Of a stretch of 64,000 bases of DNA, positions 3,801-35,836 are shown piece by piece. The stretch comes from Candidatus Latescibacterota bacterium (GTDB lineage: Bacteria; Latescibacterota; UBA2968). The translations under genes were made by a program, and so were the position numbers. Location of the stretch: positions 3,840,001-3,904,000 of the forward strand of contig OZ242010.1 in NCBI GenBank assembly GCA_965204745.1. Direction: 5' to 3'. A model generated the notes under the pieces. The model did not search any database. It was not told where the DNA came from and was given only the letters and a program-made list of their open reading frames with translations. Each line of letters opens with the position of its first letter. Within the stretch, counting starts at the first letter, position 1.

Positions 3801-3845
3801 TGGCCGATTTTGAATAAATTTTTCCCAAAGAGATTTCAGACTCAT
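834..3845 (-). CDS. Dynamin-like GTPase with N-terminal repetitive coiled coil and two C-terminal ComEA-like helix-hairpin-helix modules
   Basis: G1 GGGFSSGKS, G3 DTPG, G4 NKAD; twice AKxIVAYRTxNGxFQRLDELRRVRGIG; start overlaps upstream stop (ATGA). Confidence 0.85.
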   Translation of the reverse strand: MSLKSLWEKFIQNRPVYQKLRVAYERATKNLAKLQTAHEQTTADLNRKTGALGEAHAEHAQTKTALDNSRHRFQQLQTAHGALTEKNDRTATDLEQARHRVQQLQKAHEQTTVDLNRKTGALGEARAEHAQTKAALDNSRHRFQQLQKAHGALTEKNDRTATDLEQARHRVQQLQKAHEQTTADLNRKTGALDEARAEHERVTAALDKAQHDLQQLHAKHERTTMELERATTALDEARAEHEQTKAELRDEQKKYNSLHEEYMQTDWPKLLEEHNQTTTALTEEREKHAEKTDALNALHEEHNALREEHDQTETDLTKARHNFDELDQKYKLVSDLLTPKSSENEAFVKFKKLFDKEFMDFANEESSLADEADAVQKLQSLEKRLEEIVAFPHTFMKKSIAIGGGFSSGKSEFVNSFIKKPDVKMPVGIEPATAIPSFVISNPEVSIKGFSRDGATVDIAPDLYSQLSHRFVESFSFKLKDHMPYITVEVPLDEGLFENICLIDTPGYNPAGGNTGEDRKTAAEVLKDRDALIWMIGLDATGTIPQDDLDFIEDLELNGLPFYVVLNKADLKSPSDLKDILDEVKETLEDVDIEPVGISAYSAIRGKEYSFDEDGVSLHDFFRRENQPKEEIETELRGGIESVFAMYEDAIRKDEHTAELLMKELNSLDLEILSTKIPLDEQDVLSEKIDNIKNSQERDFTPIKAKMEKIKKEMLKAVDEVFWSLRPQGNEAMTRLSSAPAPKSEQASPPPSNKGSAVKRQGSIKGGKYIPTTAEQPEKPSALPQEHSQPPKRTDKPRFENPELPASSNVVTAHREAKISDEQATQSATEQFEQSALQFINSASADSLADEFGKLRSPDVAKKIVAYRTQNGQFQRLDELRRVRGIGFYTFEQLRKRLWDMRHRLSSNVVTAHREAKISDEQATQTEQIGQSALRFINSESAKVLADRLDLRPDVAKNIVAYRTRNGPFQRLDELRRVRGIGFSFYTFEQLRKRLWDMRHHLG
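843..1428 (-). repeat. Tandem duplication (~300 bp unit) encoding the two HhH modules
   Basis: Near-identical blocks ~843-1128 and ~1137-1428; SSNVVTAHREAKISDEQATQ...LWDMRH occurs twice. Confidence 0.9.
3245..3750 (-). repeat. 210-bp (70-aa) tandem repeat in the coiled coil, about 2.5 copies
   Basis: cgatgccgYgagttgtccaagg at 3421 and 3631; QQLQKAHEQTTxDLNRKTGAL repeated. Confidence 0.9.
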
Positions 3846-6070
3846 GGGTTCACCTCCACTTTTTTCAATTCATCCTTGAGGCGGCTGATTCGCTTCAATT
3901 CCATTTCCTTGTTTTCAATGGATTTCTCAAGCGCGTCAAGTTCCTTTTTCGTGCGCTCTAGAAGTTGCTCATCCAACCGAACTCTCTTCATTTCTGCGGT
4001 GAGACTTCTCGTGTACTCTTTTATTTTTGTATTAAATTCATTGTAAAGTGTGAAGCGAAGGTATTCGTCCGCCTCCTGAGCAAATTTTTCCGCCTTTTTG
4101 CCCTTCAACACGCCTTGGGGTCTTAAGGACTTTGGCAGTGAGGGGCCAAACGTATCGTCAGGAAGGGATATGTCGGCGACAGCATTCCTGATGACCCGCC
4201 TGATCATCGAGGCTTCCAAACTCTCATCATCAAAGTGTTCCTGCAAAATTTTGGCCATCTCCTTGATGAGTTCATTCCGCCACTCAGTCTTTTTATTTTC
4301 TGCTATGGTTTTGAACTCTCTACCGATATCACTGGCAAACAGCGACAGGTCATGAGAAACGGCATTGGTGCGAATGGTCTTACTGGTTTCACTATACTGT
4401 TCGTAACCACCTCCAAACCATCTGGCAATCCCTGCAAAAACCCCTCTCTTTTTACGCTCTTTGGTTTCAGTCACTTCGCCTATCGCACTCTCGATATTTT
4501 TGCTTAACGCCTGTTTTTGTCTGTCGAGTTCTCCCCGAAGTTCCCGATTCAGCGAGTTTGTGCGCTGTGTCACCGATTCCTCGTAATCCAATTTGATGTC
4601 CCATGAAGCATCATTGAGAGCCTTTGTCAATGTTGCGCGCTGTGCCTTGATTTTTCCAATATCCGTACGTTTGATTTCGGACTGCCGCTCGTCGGCAAAC
4701 GCGAGCAGGCCATCCTTCAAGGCGTGCAGAGACTGGCGTTTGGCGTGGATGTACTCCATCCGCCTTTGCGTGATGATGTCGTCCTTTTTCGCGCGCACCG
4801 TCGAGACGATGTTTTGGATGGTCAAGATGTTGGACAACTTGTTCAAATTGACGCCCGACAAGCGCGCGTCCGCATCGGAGAAATAGTCTGGATAATCGTA
4901 CAGCAGATTGCCCCAAGCGTTCTGCATCCCCTCGTCCCACTTCTCCCGTTGTCCAAAAAGTTGCTTCAGGCTTTCGCACATTCCCGACGAGTAAATGATC
5001 TTGCTCTGGCCTTCGAGCAACTGATCGTAGGTATCGCCCACTTCGGGATTGTTATCTTTCAAATCCGCGATAACCTTGCTCAATTGGTCTCCAAGCACCC
5101 TGGTGAGACTCTCCAACACGCGATCCAACTGCCCGCCGTTCTCATCCTTCAGATTGCCGAAAAGCTGGGTATCTGCTTGGGCCGCCACGACAAACAGTTC
5201 CCGGATGCCTTCCTTACTGGTGATTCGGTCCATCAATTCCAAATCCACAGTATTCAAAAACTGCCCCGACGGACTGAGAACCAACACCACATCGCATTGG
5301 TTCAAGTGTTCTCGCGTCCGCTCCTCGCGGGACTGCACCGGGTCGTTGATGCCCGGCGTATCCACGATTTCTATGTCCTTCAGATTTTCTTGGGGAAGCC
5401 GAATGTTGACGCTTTTGGTAAAGGGCATGTACCTGCCATCCGCGCCGACATACGCCTCTAATTGAGCCTGCAAATCAGAATCACTGCCGAACTCGAGAAG
5501 GCGATTCTCGGTCAAGGATTCCCCGGTAGCCTCCATTTTCTCGTATTGTTCATGCGCGGCAGAGAGTTCGACATTCTCCCGCATCTCCCGATTGGCCCTG
5601 CTTTTCGCCCGCTCCTCTGGGGATCGAGATCGGGTTTTTCTCTGCTGTTCTTGCGCTAGGGCTGTCCTGTACCGGTCGTCCCATTGCCTGTTGTACTCGT
5701 CGTAATTCGCCTTGATATTCTCAATGTCGGCTTGGGTAAAAAATTCCACTTCCGCGGACGGGGTTTTGCCATGCGAAAGCGTGGTCAAGGCCGCGGTCAT
5801 CGGCGTAGCGGCCTTGGGGAGAATGCTTTGCCCGTCAAAGATGAGGGCGTTCAGCAACGAGGATTTCCCGGATTTGACCCGGCCCAAGATGCCGATCTTC
5901 AGCAGACGACCTTCAGTGGCAATCGACTCCAAATCCGTTTGCAAGTTCTCGCTCGTGGGAACGCTGTGTTCCCGACAGATGCGTTGGGCCTCGTCCCCGA
6001 GAAAATCGTGGTAACGGCCCGTGACACCTTCCAACTTTTCCCTGAAAGCGACAATTCCATTCTGATTCAT
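3842..6070 (-). CDS. Dynamin-like GTPase (Leo/Eleos-like, ~742 aa); native RBS displaced by IS701
   Basis: GRVKSGKSS, KAATPMTAALT, DTPGINDP; true start MNQNGI at 6070 lies within the IS target duplication. Confidence 0.88.
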   Translation of the reverse strand: MNQNGIVAFREKLEGVTGRYHDFLGDEAQRICREHSVPTSENLQTDLESIATEGRLLKIGILGRVKSGKSSLLNALIFDGQSILPKAATPMTAALTTLSHGKTPSAEVEFFTQADIENIKANYDEYNRQWDDRYRTALAQEQQRKTRSRSPEERAKSRANREMRENVELSAAHEQYEKMEATGESLTENRLLEFGSDSDLQAQLEAYVGADGRYMPFTKSVNIRLPQENLKDIEIVDTPGINDPVQSREERTREHLNQCDVVLVLSPSGQFLNTVDLELMDRITSKEGIRELFVVAAQADTQLFGNLKDENGGQLDRVLESLTRVLGDQLSKVIADLKDNNPEVGDTYDQLLEGQSKIIYSSGMCESLKQLFGQREKWDEGMQNAWGNLLYDYPDYFSDADARLSGVNLNKLSNILTIQNIVSTVRAKKDDIITQRRMEYIHAKRQSLHALKDGLLAFADERQSEIKRTDIGKIKAQRATLTKALNDASWDIKLDYEESVTQRTNSLNRELRGELDRQKQALSKNIESAIGEVTETKERKKRGVFAGIARWFGGGYEQYSETSKTIRTNAVSHDLSLFASDIGREFKTIAENKKTEWRNELIKEMAKILQEHFDDESLEASMIRRVIRNAVADISLPDDTFGPSLPKSLRPQGVLKGKKAEKFAQEADEYLRFTLYNEFNTKIKEYTRSLTAEMKRVRLDEQLLERTKKELDALEKSIENKEMELKRISRLKDELKKVEVNP

Positions 6071-6071
6071 G

Positions 6072-7151
6072 TAGGACTTACGCAAAAAAGAACAGGATCG
6101 AACCCCCATCCTCACTTTGGAGGTCTGTATGGCGAAACCAACGCGCTTGGATTACTGCCAGTATCTGCTTAGCAGTCCGCTCAATTATACCCTGACTCAT
6201 TTCGCAGATCACAGCGACCGGTTCACGCATGATATGCTCAACCGCTATCTGGGTGGGGATCGCGTCTCGCCGCGTGTGATCTGGAAAAACGTCAAACCCC
6301 ACCTCACGTCGACCGCAAAGGGCGTAATTCTCTTTGATGACACGGTCTTAGATAAGCGCTATGCCAAAAAGATGGCTCTCGTGCGTCGGCAATACAGTGG
6401 CAATGCGAAGGGGGTCATCTCGGGGATCGGTGTGGTGACGTGTGTGTATGTCAATCCGATTCAAGATCGGTTTTGGCTGATTGACTATCGCATTTACGAT
6501 CCGCAAGGGGATGGAAAAACCAAGTTAGACCACGTCAAAGAGATGTTGTCACTCTTGGTCTATCACAAAAAACTGCCTTTTGAGCGAGTGGTGATGGATA
6601 CTTGGTATGCCACCAAAGCGGTCATGCTTCACATTGAGCACTTGCAAAAGACCTATTACTGTCCTATCAAAAAGAATCGCCTCGTGGACGATTCGTCAGG
6701 TGAAAACCCCTATCAACGGGTCGATGCCTTAACTTGGACAAAACGCGAACAGGCCACAGGAAAACGCATGAAACTCAGAGGGTTCCCTAAAAACCACAAG
6801 GTGAACGTATTCCGGGTCGCGTCTGCGACGAGACGCACGGCGTATATCGTAACCAACGACTTGACTCAAACCGACCCGTCAGTGGCACAAGCGGTGTGCC
6901 ACTTGCGTTGGAAGATTGAGCAAGTTCACCGGGAAGCAAAACAGGTAACGGGGCTTGAAAAGTGTCAATGCCGATTGGCACGCATTGTGCGAAACCACAT
7001 CGCGTGTGCCTTTCTCGTTTGGGGACGACTGACCCAAGTCGCCTATCAGACTGGACAAACCATCTATCAAGTCAAACATGGCTTATGGGAGGATTATTTG
7101 AGACAACAACTCAAAACACCGGCGATACCAATGACCCTGGCGTAAGTCCTA
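6072..7151 (+). mobile_element. IS701-family element, copy 1
   Basis: TIRs TAGGACTTACGC / GCGTAAGTCCTA; 5-bp TSD TCATG at 6067-6071 and 7152-7156. Confidence 0.92.
6129..7145 (+). CDS. IS701-family DDE transposase
   Basis: FDDTVLDK, RRQYSG, MDTWY, RWKIEQVHREAKQVTG. Confidence 0.9.
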   Translation: MAKPTRLDYCQYLLSSPLNYTLTHFADHSDRFTHDMLNRYLGGDRVSPRVIWKNVKPHLTSTAKGVILFDDTVLDKRYAKKMALVRRQYSGNAKGVISGIGVVTCVYVNPIQDRFWLIDYRIYDPQGDGKTKLDHVKEMLSLLVYHKKLPFERVVMDTWYATKAVMLHIEHLQKTYYCPIKKNRLVDDSSGENPYQRVDALTWTKREQATGKRMKLRGFPKNHKVNVFRVASATRRTAYIVTNDLTQTDPSVAQAVCHLRWKIEQVHREAKQVTGLEKCQCRLARIVRNHIACAFLVWGRLTQVAYQTGQTIYQVKHGLWEDYLRQQLKTPAIPMTLA

Positions 7152-7259: not shown

Positions 7260-8444
7260 GGCGTTGTTGCATAAATGTTGTCGTGGCGAAGTTCGTCCCT
7301 TTCCCGCGAGATTTAAGCCCCTCTTTCTATGGGATAGGACACGGGTTTCGCGATCCTCATCATGCGATTGAGCACCGCACATCCCAACCGCGCTTCCGTT
7401 TCTTGGTTCTTCTGACTTCGTGCGCGCAACTGCCGTCCAATGAGTTGCTTGTAGCGGCATAGTTGGGTTTCAACGACCGAGCGACGATGATAGCCACTGG
7501 TGCGTTTCCACTTTCGGCGGCCTTGACGCCGGATGGCTCGGATGATTTCATCGCGGGCGAGGGGAGGTGCCTTCCTGTTTCCGTGTTGTTCAATTTTGGC
7601 ATCATGGCGCGGGGGAAGAAGAGGTCGGATGGGGGCTCCTTGTTTGGGGGCGGCGCATGTGTTGAAGACCTTGCGTTTGTCATAGCCGCCATCGGCACCC
7701 ATCGTATGGACAGGGGCCAGGACTTGATCGAGCAAGGGGTTGACCTGCCAAGCGTCATCAACGCTTGCCGAAGTCAGGGTCTGTGCGACAATCTCCCCGG
7801 TGGCCTCATCGACGCCGATGTGCAATTTGCGCCAAGTCCGGCGCTTGTAAAAGCCGTGTTGACGCACCTTCCATTCCCCTTCGCCATACACTTTCAGGCC
7901 GGTGGAATCCACCACTAAATGGATCGGCGCATGACGGGATTGGACAGGTAAATCCACGTTCAAATCGCCCTGTCGCCGGCAGAGGGTCGTGTGATCGGGC
8001 ACGCGCAAAGCCACCCCCATCAACGCCAGGATGGACGTGAGAAACCCCTCGGTTTGACGCAGGGGCAAGGCAGAGACCAAGCGCAACATCAATGCCGTTT
8101 GAATAGCCAAATCTGAAAAGGTGTTTTGCCGCCCCCGTTGCGTTGGCCCTTGATGGTACCACCCCCGAAGGGCTTGCGGCGTGATCCAAAACGTCAGACT
8201 GCCCCGCTGCTTGAGACCGGCCTCGTAGGCCGCCCAGTTCCGAACCCGATAGACAGGCGCACAGCGCGGGCGACGCGGGCGACGCGGGGACTTGACAGCG
8301 GTCTTGGAAGCGGTTATCTTGGGCATGACAGGTTCCTGGTGAGAAAGGGTGAGTGGTTTCGATGATCTATATGCCCAATCTACGAAGGAGCCTGTCTTTT
8401 TGCAATCCCAACTTGCAGGTAATTGCTATTTATGCAACAAAGCC
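7260..8444 (-). mobile_element. IS5-family (IS903 group) element
   Basis: TIRs GGCGTTGTTGCATAAA / TTTATGCAACAAAGCC; 9-bp TSD CACAAAAAC at 7251-7259 and 8445-8453. Confidence 0.93.
7313..8326 (-). CDS. IS5/IS903-group transposase
   Basis: YRVRNWAAYEAGLKQRGSLTFW, VDSTGLKVYGEGEW, ADGGYD, GYHRRSVVET. Confidence 0.93.
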   Translation of the reverse strand: MPKITASKTAVKSPRRPRRPRCAPVYRVRNWAAYEAGLKQRGSLTFWITPQALRGWYHQGPTQRGRQNTFSDLAIQTALMLRLVSALPLRQTEGFLTSILALMGVALRVPDHTTLCRRQGDLNVDLPVQSRHAPIHLVVDSTGLKVYGEGEWKVRQHGFYKRRTWRKLHIGVDEATGEIVAQTLTSASVDDAWQVNPLLDQVLAPVHTMGADGGYDKRKVFNTCAAPKQGAPIRPLLPPRHDAKIEQHGNRKAPPLARDEIIRAIRRQGRRKWKRTSGYHRRSVVETQLCRYKQLIGRQLRARSQKNQETEARLGCAVLNRMMRIAKPVSYPIERGA

Positions 8445-8533
8445 CACAAAAACACAAAAAACACAAGCGGGGTACAACTGGCGATAGGCCGTTCAAAGAC
8501 ACAATCGGAGACTATCTCCCCTTCCCGAATCGG

Positions 8534-8876
8534 GGTGAAAGTCTTGTAGTTAATTTGTTGGTCATTGTTGATTGTTTGGTGTATGTTTTGTGTCGTATTT
8601 GTTCTTTGAAAAGTGAAGCGGGATAGGCCGTTGCTGATAAAGACATGTCTGCGACAGCGACAACCAAGCGGCAGACCTAAAATCTCCTATCAGCATAAAA
8701 TCCACAGGAAGAATAGTAAATAATAGACTATTCACTTGCGCGGCTAGCTTGACCGAGCAAGTAAAAAACGGACATGGAGGTGCTGTAAGACGGACAAGAG
8801 GTTGTATGTGCTTGGACGCTGGCCTGATGAAGCGTCAATTTCAGTTGGTCAACAATGATCAACAAGAAAGGAGCGG
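8534..8876 (+). mobile_element. Non-autonomous IS607-type mini-element (no tnpA/tnpB) carrying an omegaRNA scaffold
   Basis: Ends in AAGGAGCGG like the tnpB element; inverted subterminal TTGTTG(G/A)TCATTGTTG at both ends; removal at GG restores hairpin TCTCCCC..GGGGAGA. Confidence 0.72.
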
Positions 8877-8896
8877 AGAGCCTATTGTTCAAAAAG
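8739..8896 (+). ncRNA. Putative TnpB omegaRNA (scaffold to 8876 plus ~20-nt flanking guide)
   Basis: 8765-8838 aligns with 63442-63515: AAAACGGACRTGGAGRTGCYGTAAGACGGACAMGAGGTTGTAWGTGCKTGGACGC...TGAAGCGTCAAT. Confidence 0.65.
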
Positions 8897-10597
8897 CACC
8901 GGCGTTGCCAGCAAGCGGATGTTCTCTCGAATGCTGGTCAGATCGGCAATGGTTTGTTCAATGTCCTGAAGCGCGTCCTTCTTGGCCCGCTCGGCTTCGG
9001 CGATTTCGCTTTGTTTGGCTTTGATCTGCGAATCCAAGGCCGCCGCGTTCTCATCGATGAGGGCGTTCACTTGCTCCTCGAAATTTTTGGGCAGTTCGCT
9101 CCGCAATTTGCTTTTGATGGACGGGATAACGCTTCCAATCAGTTGGTTGCGAATCTGATCCTCCTGCTTCCGCTTTTGAAAGTAGGCAATAATGTCGGGC
9201 AGGAAGATAATGACGAGTTCCAACAGTGGCATCACAAAACTGGTGGTAATGGCGAGCGTGGTGGCGACAACACGGTACAAATTCCGCCCACCTTTGACTG
9301 CACTGCCGATCCCTTTGATAATCGCGCTCCCCGTGGAAAGAATCTGTGGGGCGTGGTACACTGCTTTTTCCAGCCAATTTTCATCTCTCGTATAAGAGGA
9401 CAGAATGTGGTCAATGCCTTTGACGCTGTTAGACAAGTCTTCGCCGATCTGTCTGTTCAACTGCTCCATTTCGGTTTTCACATGGCTCCCGAGCGAGGTG
9501 CGGAGGATTTCCGCCATCTGTTGCTGAAAAGCATCTTCGCCGCCGGACAGGGCGATGTTGGTCAACTCCTCTACGGCATTGTTCAAGTCCGCGCCCACGC
9601 GCTCCACAATGGTATTGACACGGGTCGTGGAATACCGCGAGCGGATGTCCTGAATCATAGCGTTTTTCTCGCGCTCCAAATCCCGGATGGCTGTGGCGAG
9701 TTTGTCAATGGCCGCTTGGTTCTCGCCCTCGTCCTTTTTCAAGGAACTGATCCAAGTGTTCAAGCTGCCGTCAATATCGAAGAAACTCGCCTCCAAGCTG
9801 GGGCGATAAAGCCGGGTGAAAAGTTTTTCCGGATCGATGGCATCGAGCGTTTTTCCAAGACTCGCCCCGCCATCCATGTCCACGGGCACGACCACATCGG
9901 CAAAGTCGAAATCGTCTTGGAGCCGATCCTTGACGTTCTGCGCGATCTCTCGAACCTCGGATTCCGAGCGCAAATTCGCCTTGCTCAAAAACACGGAAAA
10001 CGGCTTGTCGAACTCGTCAAACTCGGACAACTGCCGATGGGTCGATTGCGTGACCGTGCCCTCTTCCACGCTGATCAAGACCGCGTAATGGCTCCCTCGG
10101 TCAAGGTACGTCAAAATGGCTTTCTGGTGCAAATCCAGCGGCGAATCAAACCCCGGCATATCCACGAGCACGAGGGGCGCGATCCCCTTGAGTTGCTCGC
10201 TGTTGAGAAAGACCTCGACATATTGATATTGCGCCGCCTTTTCCTTAATCGCGCCGATCTCCTCAATGGCGTAGCGATCCGCCTCGCCATTTTCCATGAT
10301 GGCCTCGACGCGCTCCCTGTCGGAATAACGCAACTCGGTTGCCAGCGCGGTTTCCGGGGTGATGTTGACGGGCAGGAGTTCAGACCCCAAAAACGAGTTG
10401 ATCAACGTGCTCTTGCCCGCGCTGAATGCCCCGATCACCGGCACGACCAACTCGGCCTCGGCGATCTCCCGTTTCAACGCCTCTGCGGACTGGATGTTTT
10501 TCCCAAGTTCCTCAAACACCCCCAAAGCACTCGCCCTAGTCAATTCCGCCTTCACCCCATCCAAATAATCGCAAAACGTCCTCTGCGTCTGAAGCAT
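8882..10597 (-). CDS. Dynamin-like GTPase (Leo/Eleos-like, 571 aa)
   Basis: GAFSAGKS, PETALATE, DMPGFDS, SKAN; C-terminal hydrophobic paddle ATTLAITTSFVMPLLELVIIFLP. Confidence 0.9.
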   Translation of the reverse strand: MLQTQRTFCDYLDGVKAELTRASALGVFEELGKNIQSAEALKREIAEAELVVPVIGAFSAGKSTLINSFLGSELLPVNITPETALATELRYSDRERVEAIMENGEADRYAIEEIGAIKEKAAQYQYVEVFLNSEQLKGIAPLVLVDMPGFDSPLDLHQKAILTYLDRGSHYAVLISVEEGTVTQSTHRQLSEFDEFDKPFSVFLSKANLRSESEVREIAQNVKDRLQDDFDFADVVVPVDMDGGASLGKTLDAIDPEKLFTRLYRPSLEASFFDIDGSLNTWISSLKKDEGENQAAIDKLATAIRDLEREKNAMIQDIRSRYSTTRVNTIVERVGADLNNAVEELTNIALSGGEDAFQQQMAEILRTSLGSHVKTEMEQLNRQIGEDLSNSVKGIDHILSSYTRDENWLEKAVYHAPQILSTGSAIIKGIGSAVKGGRNLYRVVATTLAITTSFVMPLLELVIIFLPDIIAYFQKRKQEDQIRNQLIGSVIPSIKSKLRSELPKNFEEQVNALIDENAAALDSQIKAKQSEIAEAERAKKDALQDIEQTIADLTSIRENIRLLATPVLFEQ

Positions 10598-10706: not shown

Positions 10707-11056
10707 GCCTCTTAGGTCGGTGGTGGATTAAAGGGTGGGACTTCCAGCCCAGGTGCTATGGTACCGTTTCAATTCCATAACACGACCATCGCTACATGCT
10801 TTGGGAGCGTGGGGGGAGTGTAACGACAGAGATACGATACGATTACTGTGTTGCATTTATCCCTGGAAAATGGCAGGTAGGCAAGTGTGCAACTCACTGT
10901 TGTAGCCTACTGATGAATCTTCTCGCCTATGCACTCCACCCCACGCAAAACTGCAATTCGCTCTTTACTATTTATTTACGGGGAATATATCCCCTATGTC
11001 ACAACATGCAAGCCGAAAAAAGTTTGTAGGGCTAAAGCCCTTCTAAAAATTTGTCC

Positions 11057-11086
11057 TTGACATGCCCCCTCTCATCGGGTTATATT
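11057..11086 (+). promoter_or_regulatory. Sigma70-type promoter
   Basis: TTGACA-18 nt-TATATT; the same -10 hexamer occurs upstream of cysH and tRNA-Lys. Confidence 0.65.
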
Positions 11087-11312
11087 TTGCGTGAACAGAC
11101 GACGCAAAACGTCAGGCGGCAAGCCGCTCGAAAGGGTTCGCGCCCGCGTGTTCACCTTCGGTCTTTTTCACGGCCGGCTCGCGACCGGCATTCGGTACCC
11201 GGCTCGGAATGCGATTTCTCCAAAGACCACCACGCACACGTCAGGCAAGCGGAAAATTCACAGAACCGCGAGTGGGAGTGACAGGCTACAACGCACACAA
11301 GAGGAGGTCAAT

Positions 11313-11372
11313 ATGCCACCTATCAGTACCACGCGGTCGGGCATCATCATGACCTCACCCCCGACCGTCTGA
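11313..11372 (+). CDS. 19-aa small peptide MPPISTTRSGIIMTSPPTV
   Basis: Strong RBS GAGGAGG 6 nt before ATG. Confidence 0.45.
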   Translation: MPPISTTRSGIIMTSPPTV

Positions 11373-11395
11373 CATTTGAGGTTGTGCAATATACA

Positions 11396-11430
11396 AACGG
11401 CCACGATCACAAGATCGCGGCCGTTTTTTT
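11396..11430 (+). terminator. Rho-independent terminator
   Basis: AAACGGCCACGATC-ACAA-GATCGCGGCCGTTTTTTT. Confidence 0.75.
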
Positions 11431-11431
11431 A

Positions 11432-12053
11432 GACCTACCCCCTGCTGGCCCCGGTTACTCGCTCCGCTCCATTATAGGCTACGCCTGTGCCTGCGAGGAA
11501 GAGGGAATGGCGATGGGGATTGCGAGGGGATTGGGACCTACCCCCTGGCCCCCTTCCTACGAGGAAGGGGGAATGGCGAGAGGTCTTCCGAGGGATTGTG
11601 TGTAAGGGTTTTTTGATTTTCATGGCGTGATCCATTCGCTCAAAGCCATCAGAATAGCTAGGGATGCAAACCGTCAAAAAGCCATGCGCTCCCCCTTTCC
11701 TCGCAGGAAAGGGGGCCGGGGGGATAGGTTTTGCGATGTGGGACCTACCCCCTGGCCCCCTTCCTACGAGGAAGGGGGAATGGCGAGAGGTTTTGCGAGG
11801 GATTGTACGAGGTGGGTTTGGATTTTCATGGCGTGATCCATTCGCCCAAAGCCATCAGAATAGCCAGGGATGCAAACCTTCAAAAAGCCATGCGCTCCCC
11901 CTTTCCTCGCAGGAAAGGGGGCCGGGGGGATAGGTCGATTTTTCATGGCGTGATCCATTCGCCCAAAGCCATCAAAACAGACAGGGATACAAACCTTCAA
12001 AAAGCCATGCGCTCCCCCTTTCCTCGCAGGAAAGGGGGCCGGGGGGATAGGTC
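11432..12053. repeat. Cluster of REP-like palindromes with three ~115-bp tandem units
   Basis: GGGACCTACCCCCTGGCCCCCTTCCTACGAGGAAGGGGG and CCCCTTTCCTCGCAGGAAAGGGGGCCGGGGGGATAGG repeated; also at 37.1, 42.8, 52.7 and 59.0 kb. Confidence 0.85.
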
Positions 12054-12094
12054 GATGGCGGTGGAACGGATGGGCACGCACGGGCAGATTTCGT

Positions 12095-12664
12095 CTATTC
12101 GTCTATTGAATCCAACAGGCGGCGCGTTTCTCGGGGCGAGCGCAGGCGGAAGACCGCGAGGTGGCGGTGTTGCGGCAGGTCGAACGCGGCGAGCAGGCTC
12201 GGTTTGCGCGACCAGTGGGTTTGGAACGCCCACAAAAACAGGGAGTCCTTTGTGAAAAAGTGCCACCACAGCTTTTCTCGGTTGCCGTTCCACAGCACGG
12301 TGCGCTTGGCGGCGCGGGAAATGGTGCGACAGAAGAGACGATAGAAGACGACCGGGAAGGCATAGTCGAGATAGATGATAGCGGTTGCGTGCGGCCATAC
12401 GAGGTCGCGGACGACGCTGTAATTGCCGTCTGCGATCCATCGGTCTGCGGCGATGGCTTTGGCGACGTTCTGCCTGAGAATGTGATTGGGCGTCGGGGCC
12501 CAGTTGGGGCCGTGCCGATACGCGTCGAACTCGATGTGGGGCACGTTCAGCCGAGACGCGAGGTGCCGGGCGAGTGTCGTCTTTCCCGCGCCCGACGTTC
12601 CGATGATGACCACGCGGCGCAAGGCGTCTTTATGAGGGGTATCGGTCACGGGGATGCCTCTCAC
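12095..12664 (-). CDS. Adenylate kinase-like / FlaR-type P-loop protein
   Basis: IIGTSGAGKTTLA, WIADGNY, IYLD. Confidence 0.8.
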   Translation of the reverse strand: MRGIPVTDTPHKDALRRVVIIGTSGAGKTTLARHLASRLNVPHIEFDAYRHGPNWAPTPNHILRQNVAKAIAADRWIADGNYSVVRDLVWPHATAIIYLDYAFPVVFYRLFCRTISRAAKRTVLWNGNREKLWWHFFTKDSLFLWAFQTHWSRKPSLLAAFDLPQHRHLAVFRLRSPRETRRLLDSIDE

Positions 12665-13450
12665 TTATCTCGCGCCGATCAAATACGCGACAGCCACCTT
12701 TGCCATTCCCGCATTGTCGTGTCCCACATCGGGCACGGTATCCAATACCCAATGACAGGGCGCGCCCAGGGCTTTGGCCTCGCGGTTAGCGGTTTCAAAA
12801 AACGTGTGACCGCGTTCAAACCGGTGCATGCCCTGCCGCATTGCCCCTCGCGTGCGCCGCAATTTGGGATGGTTCACATCCACGTCATCGCTGCCCAAAA
12901 GCACCACGACCCGCTGGCGCAACGCCCGCTTCAAATCCGCCGCAGTCAGGCCAGACCCGGCCAAGCCGTAGGGATAGGCCAAGTCGAAGGTGGGCATCGT
13001 GTACCACCCAGCATTGGCCGCAACAAAAAGACGCGCCCGCGCCCGAGGCATAAAGTACAAAAACCGATGGACAAACTGGCTACCCGCCGAATGCCCGTAA
13101 AATCCGTAGGACGTCGCGTGCAATCCCGCACGTTTTTTCACGCGATCAAAAATGCCTTCGATCACCTGAAATGACCAATCGGCCTCGGGATTTCGCGCGC
13201 CGCCTTTGGCAAACACATTGCCGAGATTAAACGACCGTTCATCCGGATAATGCGCCAAAGAAAACGCCGGCGCCAACAACAAAAATCCATGTGCATCGGC
13301 ATGGCGCGCCCATGTATCGCGGTAAGCGCTGGCATTGCGCGACGCACCGTGCAATGCGAACACCACAGGCAAATCGGTCAGGCGACCTTTCGGGCAGTGA
13401 TACCACACCCGCACGCGACCAAAATCAAAAGTTCCAGAACTTCGATTCAT
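12665..13450 (-). CDS. Alpha/beta hydrolase
   Basis: LHGASRNA, GHSAGSQFVHR nucleophile elbow, VGHD. Confidence 0.8.
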   Translation of the reverse strand: MNRSSGTFDFGRVRVWYHCPKGRLTDLPVVFALHGASRNASAYRDTWARHADAHGFLLLAPAFSLAHYPDERSFNLGNVFAKGGARNPEADWSFQVIEGIFDRVKKRAGLHATSYGFYGHSAGSQFVHRFLYFMPRARARLFVAANAGWYTMPTFDLAYPYGLAGSGLTAADLKRALRQRVVVLLGSDDVDVNHPKLRRTRGAMRQGMHRFERGHTFFETANREAKALGAPCHWVLDTVPDVGHDNAGMAKVAVAYLIGAR

Positions 13451-13592: not shown

Positions 13593-14552
13593 TTATTCTC
13601 CAAACCGATTGACGGCATTTCGCACCGGGGGAACGGTTTGCAAATAGGCGTAGATGGCGTTGAGGTCTTCGTCCGTCATGCCCGCGTACATGGTCCACGG
13701 CATCACGGTGTTCATCCCGTCTTGCAGGGGGATTTGCGTTGCGGTTGCGAATTGCCTGAAGCGGCTCGTAAAATACTGTTTTTGCCAGTGCCCGATGCCG
13801 GTTTCCATATCTGGGGTGATGTTGGCCGATTGCACGACTTTCCCGCTGGGCAACACAAATTGAAATCCCCCGGCGAATTGCATGCCCGCGATGGGCTGCC
13901 GCTGGATGTGCGGCGTGTGGCAAGTGGCGCATCCGGCAATGGTCGCCAAATATTTGCCATAACCGACTGCGTCTGAACGGTCTATCGGCGCGGGTGGACG
14001 ATATGCTCGAGGCATGGTGCGGACTATCAAATCGGTGGGAAAATTCAACGCGGAACGCGGGGGCTTATGGTCGATGGGGCGCAACGTACGCAGGTACGCC
14101 ACGATGGCCTCGGCGTCCGCTCGCATCAAAAACCGGTACGCGCGATAGGGCATCAGGGGAAACAGGGGATCGCCAGCTTTGGTCACCCCACTCGTAAAAG
14201 CGCGGATGATCTCGCCATCGGTCCAATGATCCAGCGCGGCAGGCGTGATGTTGGGCGCGACCAAGGTGCCCGGAAATCCCGCGGCTTCGGAAAACACCTC
14301 GCCGCCCTTGCCCTCGGTGCCCGGTATAGGCGGCGCGGAAAAATGCGTCCAATCGCGCGTGGAATGGCATTCGAGGCACACGGTCACATGGTGGGCCAAA
14401 TAACGCCCGCGTGCGACCTGCTCGGGCGTTCCCGCCACGCGAACATCGGGCGGCGGCCCCACATTGGGCAACTGGGTTTTCACATAGTACATTCCGCAGA
14501 GCGCGGCCCCAACCACGAGCGCGACCATCGCGACCACAACGACTCGCTTCAT
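13593..14552 (-). CDS. Diheme cytochrome c with N-terminal membrane anchor
   Basis: CLECH and CATCH; APNITP, MPW motifs. Confidence 0.85.
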   Translation of the reverse strand: MKRVVVVAMVALVVGAALCGMYYVKTQLPNVGPPPDVRVAGTPEQVARGRYLAHHVTVCLECHSTRDWTHFSAPPIPGTEGKGGEVFSEAAGFPGTLVAPNITPAALDHWTDGEIIRAFTSGVTKAGDPLFPLMPYRAYRFLMRADAEAIVAYLRTLRPIDHKPPRSALNFPTDLIVRTMPRAYRPPAPIDRSDAVGYGKYLATIAGCATCHTPHIQRQPIAGMQFAGGFQFVLPSGKVVQSANITPDMETGIGHWQKQYFTSRFRQFATATQIPLQDGMNTVMPWTMYAGMTDEDLNAIYAYLQTVPPVRNAVNRFGE

Positions 14553-14606
14553 CGATCCATCTCTCCGAGTATGACGCCCACACAAAAACTATGGCAAACG
14601 ATAAAT

Positions 14607-35760: not shown

Positions 35761-35836
35761 TGGTGAGCGCGGCAGGATTCGAACCTGCGACCCACGGCTT
35801 AAAAGGCCGTTGCTCTACCGCCTGAGCTACGCGCCC
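35761..35836 (-). tRNA. tRNA-Lys(TTT)
   Basis: GGGCGCGTAGCTCAGGCGGTAGAGCAACGGCCTTTTAAGCCGTGGGTCGCAGGTTCGAATCCTGCCGCGCTCACCA; promoter TTGACA-17-TATATT at 35888-35860. Confidence 0.97.

Follow-up and report, generated by a model that had tools for sequence, protein, structure and literature searches.

What does a short folded RNA do that carries its own promoter, reading frame and terminator and has no gene behind it? The question is raised by positions 11057-11430 of the window analyzed here, a stretch of 64,000 nucleotides (nt) from a Candidatus Latescibacterota bacterium (contig OZ242010.1, positions 3,840,001-3,904,000). The initial annotation saw in this element a self-contained transcript of no known class, with a multi-branch RNA leader, a 19-amino-acid (aa) peptide and a terminator, and offered as candidates an orphan attenuator, a riboswitch-controlled peptide and an RNA component of a neighboring dynamin system. 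Our preferred reading, to which we assign a probability of about one half, is that a Pro-Pro leader-peptide attenuator is combined with a large sensor-like RNA domain in a unit that is free-standing in the window. This reading is close to the first two candidates. Coordinates of all features are collected in Table 1.

The element is predicted to be an independent transcription unit for a folded RNA of ~340 nt. Its sigma-70-type promoter matches the consensus at 11 of 12 positions, both hexamers are invariant across 20 aligned same-genus sequences, and similar promoters stand at an equal distance from the element in other genera; transcription would start near 11093. A C/A-rich linker precedes the Shine-Dalgarno (SD) sequence, whose AGGAGG is invariant in a multi-genus alignment of 17 sequences (A3). 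The stem of the intrinsic terminator is G+C-rich and 12 bp long, with one A-C mismatch in the window's genome. The hairpin is present in both the minimum-free-energy and the centroid fold, and a simple terminator scan did not list it; one of its pairs, 337:363 in the genus alignment, is UA in 16 sequences and CG in 5. The near-consensus promoter, the ribosome-binding site ahead of a 19-aa peptide, the hairpin within the peptide-coding region and the strong terminator with no sense gene behind it (the next genes lie on the minus strand) had all been noticed in the initial annotation and are borne out. The plus-strand fold energy is unimpressive (z = -1.93; 5 of 100 shuffles equally good), and it is the conservation from promoter to terminator that makes the unit more than chance.

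The unit is single-copy in the 5.48-Mb genome. BLASTN found it in 20 of 20 same-genus genomes, at 69-88% identity and with matches spanning promoter to terminator, and in none of 20 genomes from the order's other genera. Homologues were sought with sequence-only models on sampled genomes, where "not found" does not mean absent. The first model (R1), built from the genus alignment A1 (21 same-genus sequences), had matches in 25 of 31 genomes within the family and in 28 of 53 within the order. In a phylum-wide sample the second (R2), built from A3 with its five genera, matched 41 of 151 genomes, almost all belonging to a single class, and 13 of 46 genera. By family (families and genera are given here by codes) the R2 matches are distributed as 26 of 29 genomes in f1, 6 of 19 in f2, 6 of 64 in f3, 1 of 2 in f4, 1 of 13 in f10 (weak, E = 0.003) and 0 of 23 in nine other families. 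Sequence-only models may have missed divergent members, as in genus g6 with 2 weak matches in 15 genomes. A few genomes contain two copies of the element. A motif scan using one genome per species returned 18 stretches, all of them titled Latescibacterota or Latescibacteria metagenome-assembled genomes.

The element matches no Rfam family. In the 64-kb window, Rfam 15 at gathering thresholds recognized only a tRNA at 35764-35836, and the view of the initial annotation that the RNA fits no known class is supported. At E up to 10, 38 matches fall in 10800-11900, nearly all within the repeat region behind the terminator, and these repeats caused all the spurious microRNA-like matches. Inside the element there are only sub-threshold, chance-level matches to sRNA-Xcc1 (minus strand, 21.1 bits vs. 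53) and ncr1015 (20.1 vs. 60), and none to Mg-related leaders at E up to 10. A promoter scan reported no minus-strand promoter-like site inside the element. Searches of the open-access literature with a few terms yielded no description of this RNA family, and literature searches found no described regulatory RNAs of Latescibacterota. The element thus appears to belong to an undescribed RNA family of Candidatus Latescibacterota, in one class of the phylum.

Several classes were considered individually. A tmRNA has tRNA-like ends, and its tag reading frame lacks both SD and start codon; the element possesses SD and ATG and has a terminator as its 3' end, and the tmRNA of this genome is located elsewhere (G000:C1:2404402-2404771, 207 bits), as is its RNase P RNA (G000:C1:3773502-3773875, 307.5 bits). 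The 6S RNA is a rod of ~180 nt with a large central bubble and has neither SD nor open reading frame (ORF), whereas the rod of the element, described below, closes a branched core that is followed by both. The 6S model RF00013 has no match in the whole genome, and it matched just 5 of 14 control genomes. A type I toxin mRNA is rejected since the encoded peptides are polar and not conserved.

The ORF is more informative. We read 42 elements, 21 of the window's genus and 21 from ten other genera. The SD-preceded frame is kept in all 42, and 40 begin with Met-Pro-Pro. The proline codons vary synonymously (codon 2: CCA 34, CCG 6; codon 3: CCA 19, CCG 15, CCT 6), the start codon is ATG in 37 elements, GTG in 4 and TTG in 1, all three stop codons are used, and a 3-nt indel within the genus keeps the frame. 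The ORFs encode 6-32 aa, and past Met-Pro-Pro the peptides differ. Thus, residue 4 is Ile in 23 elements, Gly in 8, Asp in 7 and Val in 2, with Ile in the window's genus and Gly, Asp or Val in other genera. Beyond Met-Pro-Pro and the frame only an arginine at codon 8 recurs, and this codon is part of a hairpin arm. Synonymous proline codons, a kept frame and a variable remainder suggest selection on Met-Pro-Pro and an open frame, not on a peptide product; the Thr/Ile/Pro/Ser-rich composition stressed in the initial annotation is not conserved. Two marks of a leader-peptide attenuator are therefore present, a short ORF with a ribosome-binding site and conserved candidate regulatory codons at positions 2 and 3. 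A third, a regulated sense gene downstream, is found neither in the window nor in genera g1 and g9.

A hairpin follows the prolines at a nearly constant distance. When the first 115 nt from the start codon were folded in 32 elements with the first 12 nt held open, nearly all formed a strong hairpin whose 5' arm begins near nt 18-22 and whose sequence varies from genus to genus. In the window this hairpin is H1, whose 5' arm begins 22 nt after the A of ATG and which is paired in 99.4% of alignment cells in the genus. In the 9-codon forms (f3 and f4) and the 12-codon form (g3), the hairpin is followed by a U-run and constitutes the terminator. The stop codon of the 9-codon forms lies inside the terminator 5' arm, and the ORFs of the 8-12-codon forms end inside or beside it. 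In the window's genus, g9, g8 and g7, the hairpin has no U-run and a separate terminator stands behind. In the genus and in g9, a further helix, H2, pairs an anti-SD-like segment in the H1 loop with a downstream segment. It is 95.2% paired in the genus and is formed by GGACCUC with GAGGUUC in g1 and by AUCUCC with GGAGAU in g9 (the latter by eye). In most of the genus and in g9 the downstream segment is a second SD, and the 5-codon mini-ORF behind it stops 2 nt short of the terminator stem. This mini-ORF has been lost from the window's genome and the two genomes closest to it, where the H2 pairing persists.

The same arrangement is found in a much smaller form elsewhere in the genome. A CBS-pair gene (G000:C1:1990015-1990413, minus strand) encodes an orthologue, 51% identical, of the protein encoded behind the full RNA in g3 (Pfam CBS, 7.6e-28). 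Its leader (G000:C1:1990015-1990500, including the gene) consists of a promoter TTGACT-17 nt-TATATT, ~40 nt of unstructured RNA, an SD and the ORF ATG CCA CCG GAA AAT TTG AGC CGA TGA (MPPENLSR), followed by a hairpin with the stop codon in its 5' arm, a U-run and, last, the CBS gene's own SD and ATG. The 5' domain is missing, and the large-domain model sees only the SD/start region (E = 0.014). Since this minimal leader lacks the domain, the Met-Pro-Pro ORF and hairpin seem to form a module independent of it, and the RNA of the window would be a paralogue that keeps the domain and has no gene behind.

CBS orthologues were matched in 24 of 91 genomes sampled from the class, and 25 of the 26 matched places were read. 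An SD with a Met-Pro-Pro ORF precedes the CBS gene in 18 of the 25: 13/13 loci in g1, 1/1 in g9, 2/2 in g2, 1/1 in g3 and 1/2 in g5, with 0/1 in each of g27, g49 and g7 and 0/3 in g22. In most g1 species this ORF continues across the terminator, reaching 27-73 aa with ends that vary. A genome-wide scan gave 76 SD-preceded Met-Pro-Pro starts, 40 of them with ORFs of up to 40 aa; of the listed starts, only those of the window's unit and the CBS leader proved on reading to be intergenic and to combine a strong SD with a hairpin, the next-best candidate being embedded in a longer reading frame.

The large domain is the other conserved part of the element. The initial annotation had folded its first half locally, as a stem GTGAACA/TGTTCAC enclosing small hairpins. 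RNAalifold on the 21 sequences of A1 instead pairs the 5' region with a conserved box 140-170 nt downstream (columns 32-36 with 215-219, 40-46 with 199-205 and 51-55 with 193-197), giving three helices of a long-range rod. These columns hardly vary inside the genus, from which alone the rod was predicted; other genera were kept out of the prediction and used as a test, in an alignment of 28 sequences from 11 genera (A4). In a blind column-pair scan of A4 the rod helices rank at or near the top. They are paired in 95.9% of cells, compared to 87.2 ± 0.8% in shuffles (0 of 500 as high), and 8 of the 13 pairs changed on both sides (e.g., 43:235 is CG, UA, UG or AU; 44:234 is UA, CG or UG; 54:227 is CG, UA or UG). 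Double-changed cells number 50, compared to 12.9 ± 4.9 in shuffles (0 of 500), where cells count sequences of non-independent relatives and not evolutionary events. Sliding the partners by 1-3 columns leaves just 26-50% of cells paired. The compensatory changes thus lie in the long-range rod. Two internal loops belong to it, GAAAG between the second and third 5' strands and a conserved 10-nt loop within the box.

The local fold performs no better than shuffles across genera. The hairpins GGC-ggcaa-GCC and CTC-gaaa-GGG of the initial annotation, taken together with a hairpin around the box, are paired in 79.5% of cells, compared to 79.3% in shuffles (213 of 500 as high), and in the comparison of 11 genera their strands pair instead with the downstream box. 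The hairpin around the box (GCGR/YCGC) reaches 67.9% of cells and is rejected. The closing stem GTGAACA/TGTTCAC can be drawn, by eye in A1, for no genome other than the window's own and two or three close relatives. In contrast, the pairing GGTCTTT/AAAGACC proved real as the conserved 5-bp helix P5. Of the multi-branch leader, then, the structured 5' RNA and P5 stand, and the fold drawn for the first domain does not. The 5' domain (~195 nt) is predicted to consist of the three long-range helices, forming a rod around P2 and a three-way junction.

Support for the inner part (11142-11246) is weaker than for the rod. In our model, P2 encloses P5, which closes the junction with P6 and P7. The full genus model has 72 pairs (rod, P2, P5, P6, P6i, P7, H1, H2 and terminator), is 95.2% paired in the genus (slid controls, 29-52%) and contains 14 double-changed cells, compared to 4.7 ± 1.7 in shuffles (0 of 500). 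MAFFT was unable to align the inner helices across genera, and the MAFFT seed A5 is out of register there. In single-sequence folds the junction appears in sequences from 7 genera, its second arm being a GGR...YCC hairpin, and its closing helices vary in sequence (GGUCU/AGACC, UUUUC/GAAAA, ACAUC/GAUGU, ACGCC/GGCGU and GCUGC/GCAGC). The aptamer-like fold expected of a riboswitch is thus supported by covariation in the rod and less so in the inner helices.

Gene contexts of the element are diverse; downstream products in other genera, except CBS, were named from reading translations. The full RNA is followed by a sense CBS-pair gene in g2, g3 and g5, by a hydroxyacid-dehydrogenase-like gene in g8, a transhydrogenase-alpha-like gene in g15 and an epimerase-like gene in g18. 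In g2 there is no terminator, and the short ORF's stop codon and the CBS start codon overlap in the sequence ATGA. Convergent genes stand behind the element in g9, g27, g17 and one g3 copy, and in f3 the element itself stands behind a ferritin-like gene of the same orientation. A sense gene is absent from about half of the contexts.

Some individual loci may be mentioned here. The element lies directly downstream of the ferritin-like gene at loci L098, L102, L104 and L105 (f3; genera g17 and g18), and in g18 the model match is confined to the domain's 3' half. Locus L109 (g5) has two tandem elements (1440-1590 and 1620-1900) before one CBS-pair gene, the first compact, without the three-way-junction domain and with the ORF MHRPDT, the second full-length with the ORF MPPGCY. 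At locus L069 (g7), a G+C-rich, structured-looking stretch of ~200 nt (~1815-2040 in RNA orientation) follows directly behind the terminator; its motifs may resemble those of a cobalamin riboswitch.

A working scheme for the element can be proposed. Between consecutive prolines, peptide-bond formation is slow and requires EF-P; a ribosome that closely trails the polymerase can keep a terminator from forming; and the ribosome footprint is ~13-16 nt. With codon 2 or 3 in the P site, the leading edge of the ribosome would stand at about nt 19-23, that is, at the foot of the hairpin. A ribosome paused at the prolines would leave the hairpin intact, and an advancing one would melt it. In the short forms, where the hairpin is the terminator, slow Pro-Pro translation would lead to termination and passage of the prolines to read-through. 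In the window's genus, melting of H1 would free the anti-SD segment and alter the pairing of the second SD-like site before the terminator. Probably, then, the RNA works as a sensor of ribosomal translation. It would report the capacity for Pro-Pro translation, set by EF-P activity or prolyl-tRNA supply, and a second input, for instance from a ligand, from a protein or from the kinetics of folding, probably enters through the 5' domain. Because no sense gene lies behind, the output would be either the RNA of 340 nt as such or a regulated read-through in the direction of the convergent genes. Transcription, translation, pausing and controlled targets we infer from sequence alone.

A bolder version of the same scheme is doubtful. 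Here the unit would be a natural free-standing sensor of translation capacity, in which the RNA domain and the Met-Pro-Pro peptide jointly gate the intrinsic terminator; its output would be antisense read-through into the conserved convergent operon (the esterase-like and cytochrome c genes of Table 1), and its truncated paralogue would control the CBS-pair protein, which resembles adenine-nucleotide sensors. If this version is true, Pro-Pro pausing, through EF-P activity or prolyl-tRNA supply, would be a dedicated regulatory signal in an uncultured phylum.

A number of observations weigh against the attenuator with a sensor-like domain. In the window the ORF hairpin is separate from the terminator, with extra hairpins between ORF and terminator; the H2 relay proposed to bridge them would have to operate, in the window's genome, without the second mini-ORF. 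No conserved antiterminator was found, and H2 has no demonstrable competing structure. Neither was a conserved pairing found between the 5' domain and the SD, the candidate stacks in A4 showing one-sided changes only; sequestering of the SD, whether by CUC segments upstream of it or by the GCCACC that follows the start codon, would likewise involve positions that are invariant or changed on one side only. Downstream genes differ among genera and share no common regulated function. Two of the 42 elements lack Pro-Pro, both of them second copies beside a canonical element in the genome. Pro-Pro-Gly and Pro-Pro-Asp stall ribosomes strongly, and Pro-Pro-Ile, the form in the window's genus, less so. 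As for the structure, the single-sequence fold barely beats shuffles, the three-way junction appears in just 15 of 28 single-sequence folds, and the cell counts overstate the number of evolutionary events because related genomes are not independent.

Other explanations have to be weighed against the same data. The 5' domain may be a small-molecule aptamer that gates translation of the short ORF, the prolines being incidental. We consider such a riboswitch unlikely, although it is compatible with the attenuator reading. The large covarying fold with its conserved internal loops just upstream of the SD is what one would expect of it, and the full RNA directly precedes a CBS-pair gene in three genera. 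However, before the CBS gene of the window's genome the leader-peptide module would function as a unit without the domain, no domain-SD pairing is conserved, and the synonymous variation of the proline codons argues that the peptide start is selected. A coherent set of regulated genes is not seen either, since the downstream genes vary widely or are absent. It is rather improbable that the domain is the product, as a trans-acting or protein-binding small RNA, with the ORF, hairpins and terminator shaping the 3' end or stability. Its own strong promoter and terminator, the single-copy, class-wide occurrence and the frequent position between unrelated or convergent genes would fit such an RNA, but a structural 3' part has no need of Met-Pro-Pro in 40 of 42 elements, with synonymous codons and a frame kept across indels. 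Moreover, no target was found, and a duplex prediction with this genome's CBS leader was equalled or surpassed by 184 of 200 shuffles.

Two further explanations fail on the data. That the 19-aa peptide is a small-protein product under a regulatory 5' untranslated region is very improbable in spite of the strong SD and the frame kept throughout: beyond Met-Pro-Pro only residues encoded by the hairpin arm recur, length varies severalfold, composition is unrelated between genera, and the peptide is not hydrophobic and thus unlike a type I toxin. Scarcely credible is a relic, whether a decayed remnant of a lost gene (its 5' end or its leader) or an RNA belonging to the dynamin system. In its favor are the lack of a sense gene behind the unit, the dispersed repeats that fill the space behind the terminator and the insertion sequence (IS) transposases that interrupt the dynamin region. 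Still, promoter to terminator is conserved across the genus and beyond, the flanks are not, and a dynamin query matched none of the flanks (1.5 kb per side) of the 20 same-genus relatives. The role in a dynamin system considered in the initial annotation is thus not supported, as the link with the dynamin gene is not conserved at these loci.

The closest known design is that of the Salmonella mgtCBR leader. This 296-nt leader contains mgtP, an ORF of 18 codons with three proline codons, where EF-P-dependent stalling selects between stem-loops (PMC5299641). Both leaders are thus long (296 and ~340 nt), and both short ORFs (18 and 19 codons) have consecutive proline codons by alternative stem-loops; the mgtA leader with mgtL is a further example. 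Proline stalling, relieved by EF-P, sets transcription elongation there (PMC5299641, PMC5021804). The likeness is one of design only, as mgtP and mgtL have no sequence or Rfam relation to the element. Unlike in mgtP, the prolines here are codons 2 and 3, right after Met, the hairpin base lies at a fixed spacing of ~20 nt, an intrinsic terminator ends the transcript, the ORF has a large rod domain ahead of it, the unit stands alone in the window's genome, and the host belongs to a different, uncultured phylum. The sign may differ as well: stalling at mgtP raises expression, and the geometry of the short forms here suggests the opposite.

Another comparison is provided by pyrBI, where a ribosome that trails the polymerase closely keeps the terminator hairpin from forming. 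With a polyproline motif engineered in front of the pyrL terminator, termination increased in cells without EF-P (PMC5021804), and the 8-9-codon forms with the stop codon in the terminator 5' arm resemble a natural version of this construct. Natural pyrL, however, senses UTP via polymerase pausing and not proline, and the window's copy differs by the extra hairpins between ORF and terminator. Transcriptional riboswitches likewise have a conserved covarying domain upstream of an SD and terminator, under their own promoter; unlike them, the element shows no overlap of domain and expression platform, has a translated leader peptide in between and has no consistent regulon. Dual-function small RNAs (SgrS/SgrT, RNAIII/hld and SR1/SR1P) are free-standing and a few hundred nt long, with a short ORF that encodes a conserved active peptide, whereas only Met-Pro-Pro is kept here.

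Leader RNAs that combine a short ORF containing prolines with a terminator are already known from Enterobacteria. New are the unrelated sequence, the large covarying domain, the prolines after the start at a fixed distance from a hairpin, the free-standing position and the uncultured phylum. The element adds a well-supported structured RNA family from a phylum without cultured members. If the attenuator reading is true, it would also be a natural, widespread leader peptide with Pro-Pro directly after the start as its sole conserved feature. The fixed geometry of Pro-Pro and hairpin makes EF-P- or proline-dependent attenuation directly testable, and the several forms of the family (with or without the large domain, free-standing, translationally coupled or terminator-controlled) amount to a natural dissection of the two modules.

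Table 1. Features of the RNA element and of its neighborhood in the window.
Feature	Position	Strand	Remarks
Promoter	11057-11086	+	sigma-70-type; -35 TTGACA 11057-11062, 18-nt spacer, -10 TATATT 11081-11086
P1 hairpin	11098-11113	+	GACG/CGTC; kept within genus, one-sided changes only; read from A1
Rod 5' strands	11118-11138	+	LRa 11118-11120, LRb 11125-11130, LRc 11135-11138
P2	11142-11151 with 11236-11246	+	register read by eye
P5	11160-11164 with 11224-11228	+	
P6	11173-11177 with 11199-11203	+	inner stem P6i 11184-11187 with 11193-11196; register by eye
P7	11207-11209 with 11216-11218	+	
Conserved box	11264-11287	+	GAACC-G-CGAGTGG-GAGTGACA-GGCT; rod 3' strands LRc 11264-11267, LRb 11269-11274, LRa 11285-11287
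SD	11300-11307	+	AGAGGAGG; GGAGG 11303-11307; 5 nt ahead of start codon
Short ORF	11313-11372	+	19 codons; ATG 11313, TGA 11370-11372; encodes MPPISTTRSGIIMTSPPTV
H1	11334-11367	+	CGGTCGGG / CCCGACCG; inside ORF; arms 11334-11341 and 11360-11367
H2	11351-11383	+	anti-SD-like GACCTC 11351-11356 (H1 loop) with GAGGTT 11378-11383
Intrinsic terminator	11396-11430	+	hairpin 11396-11425, seven T at 11424-11430
Dynamin-family gene, second	3842-6115	-	further upstream
DDE transposase gene	6117-7145	+	between the two dynamin-family genes
DDE transposase gene	7313-8326	-	between the two dynamin-family genes
Dynamin-family gene	8882-10597	-	PF00350, 3.3e-19
Dispersed palindromic repeats	11433-12090		~660 nt
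AAA/P-loop-like ORF	12095-12664	-	downstream
Convergent ORF (esterase-like)	12665-13450	-	no Pfam family
Cytochrome c gene	13593-14585		beyond the convergent ORF
UxuA-like gene			beyond the cytochrome c gene

The neighborhood of the unit is conserved only in part. The nearest dynamin-family gene is divergent from the RNA, as the initial annotation had stated, and starts 460 nt upstream of the promoter. In addition to the two transposase genes, an A+T-richer stretch (~8300-8900) separates it from the second dynamin-family gene, and the two may be a pair split by an IS insertion. Upstream genes at the 20 same-genus loci are mutually different and have no match in the window. On the other side, no sense ORF with a family match follows the terminator in the window. 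The convergent ORF is common to 16 of the 20 loci; its likeness to PHB-depolymerase-type esterases is weak and below the cut-off (NCBIfam E = 7e-10, 38.8 bits vs. 150). In the window's genome and two of those relatives, the AAA-like ORF sits between the RNA and this convergent ORF.

The repeats directly behind the terminator have units of ~68 and 119 nt (e.g., 11532-11599 with 11739-11806, and 11611-11729 with two further copies). A 168-nt piece of them has 589 BLAST matches over the 5.48-Mb genome, which identifies them as repetitive extragenic palindromic (REP)- or miniature inverted-repeat transposable element (MITE)-like elements.

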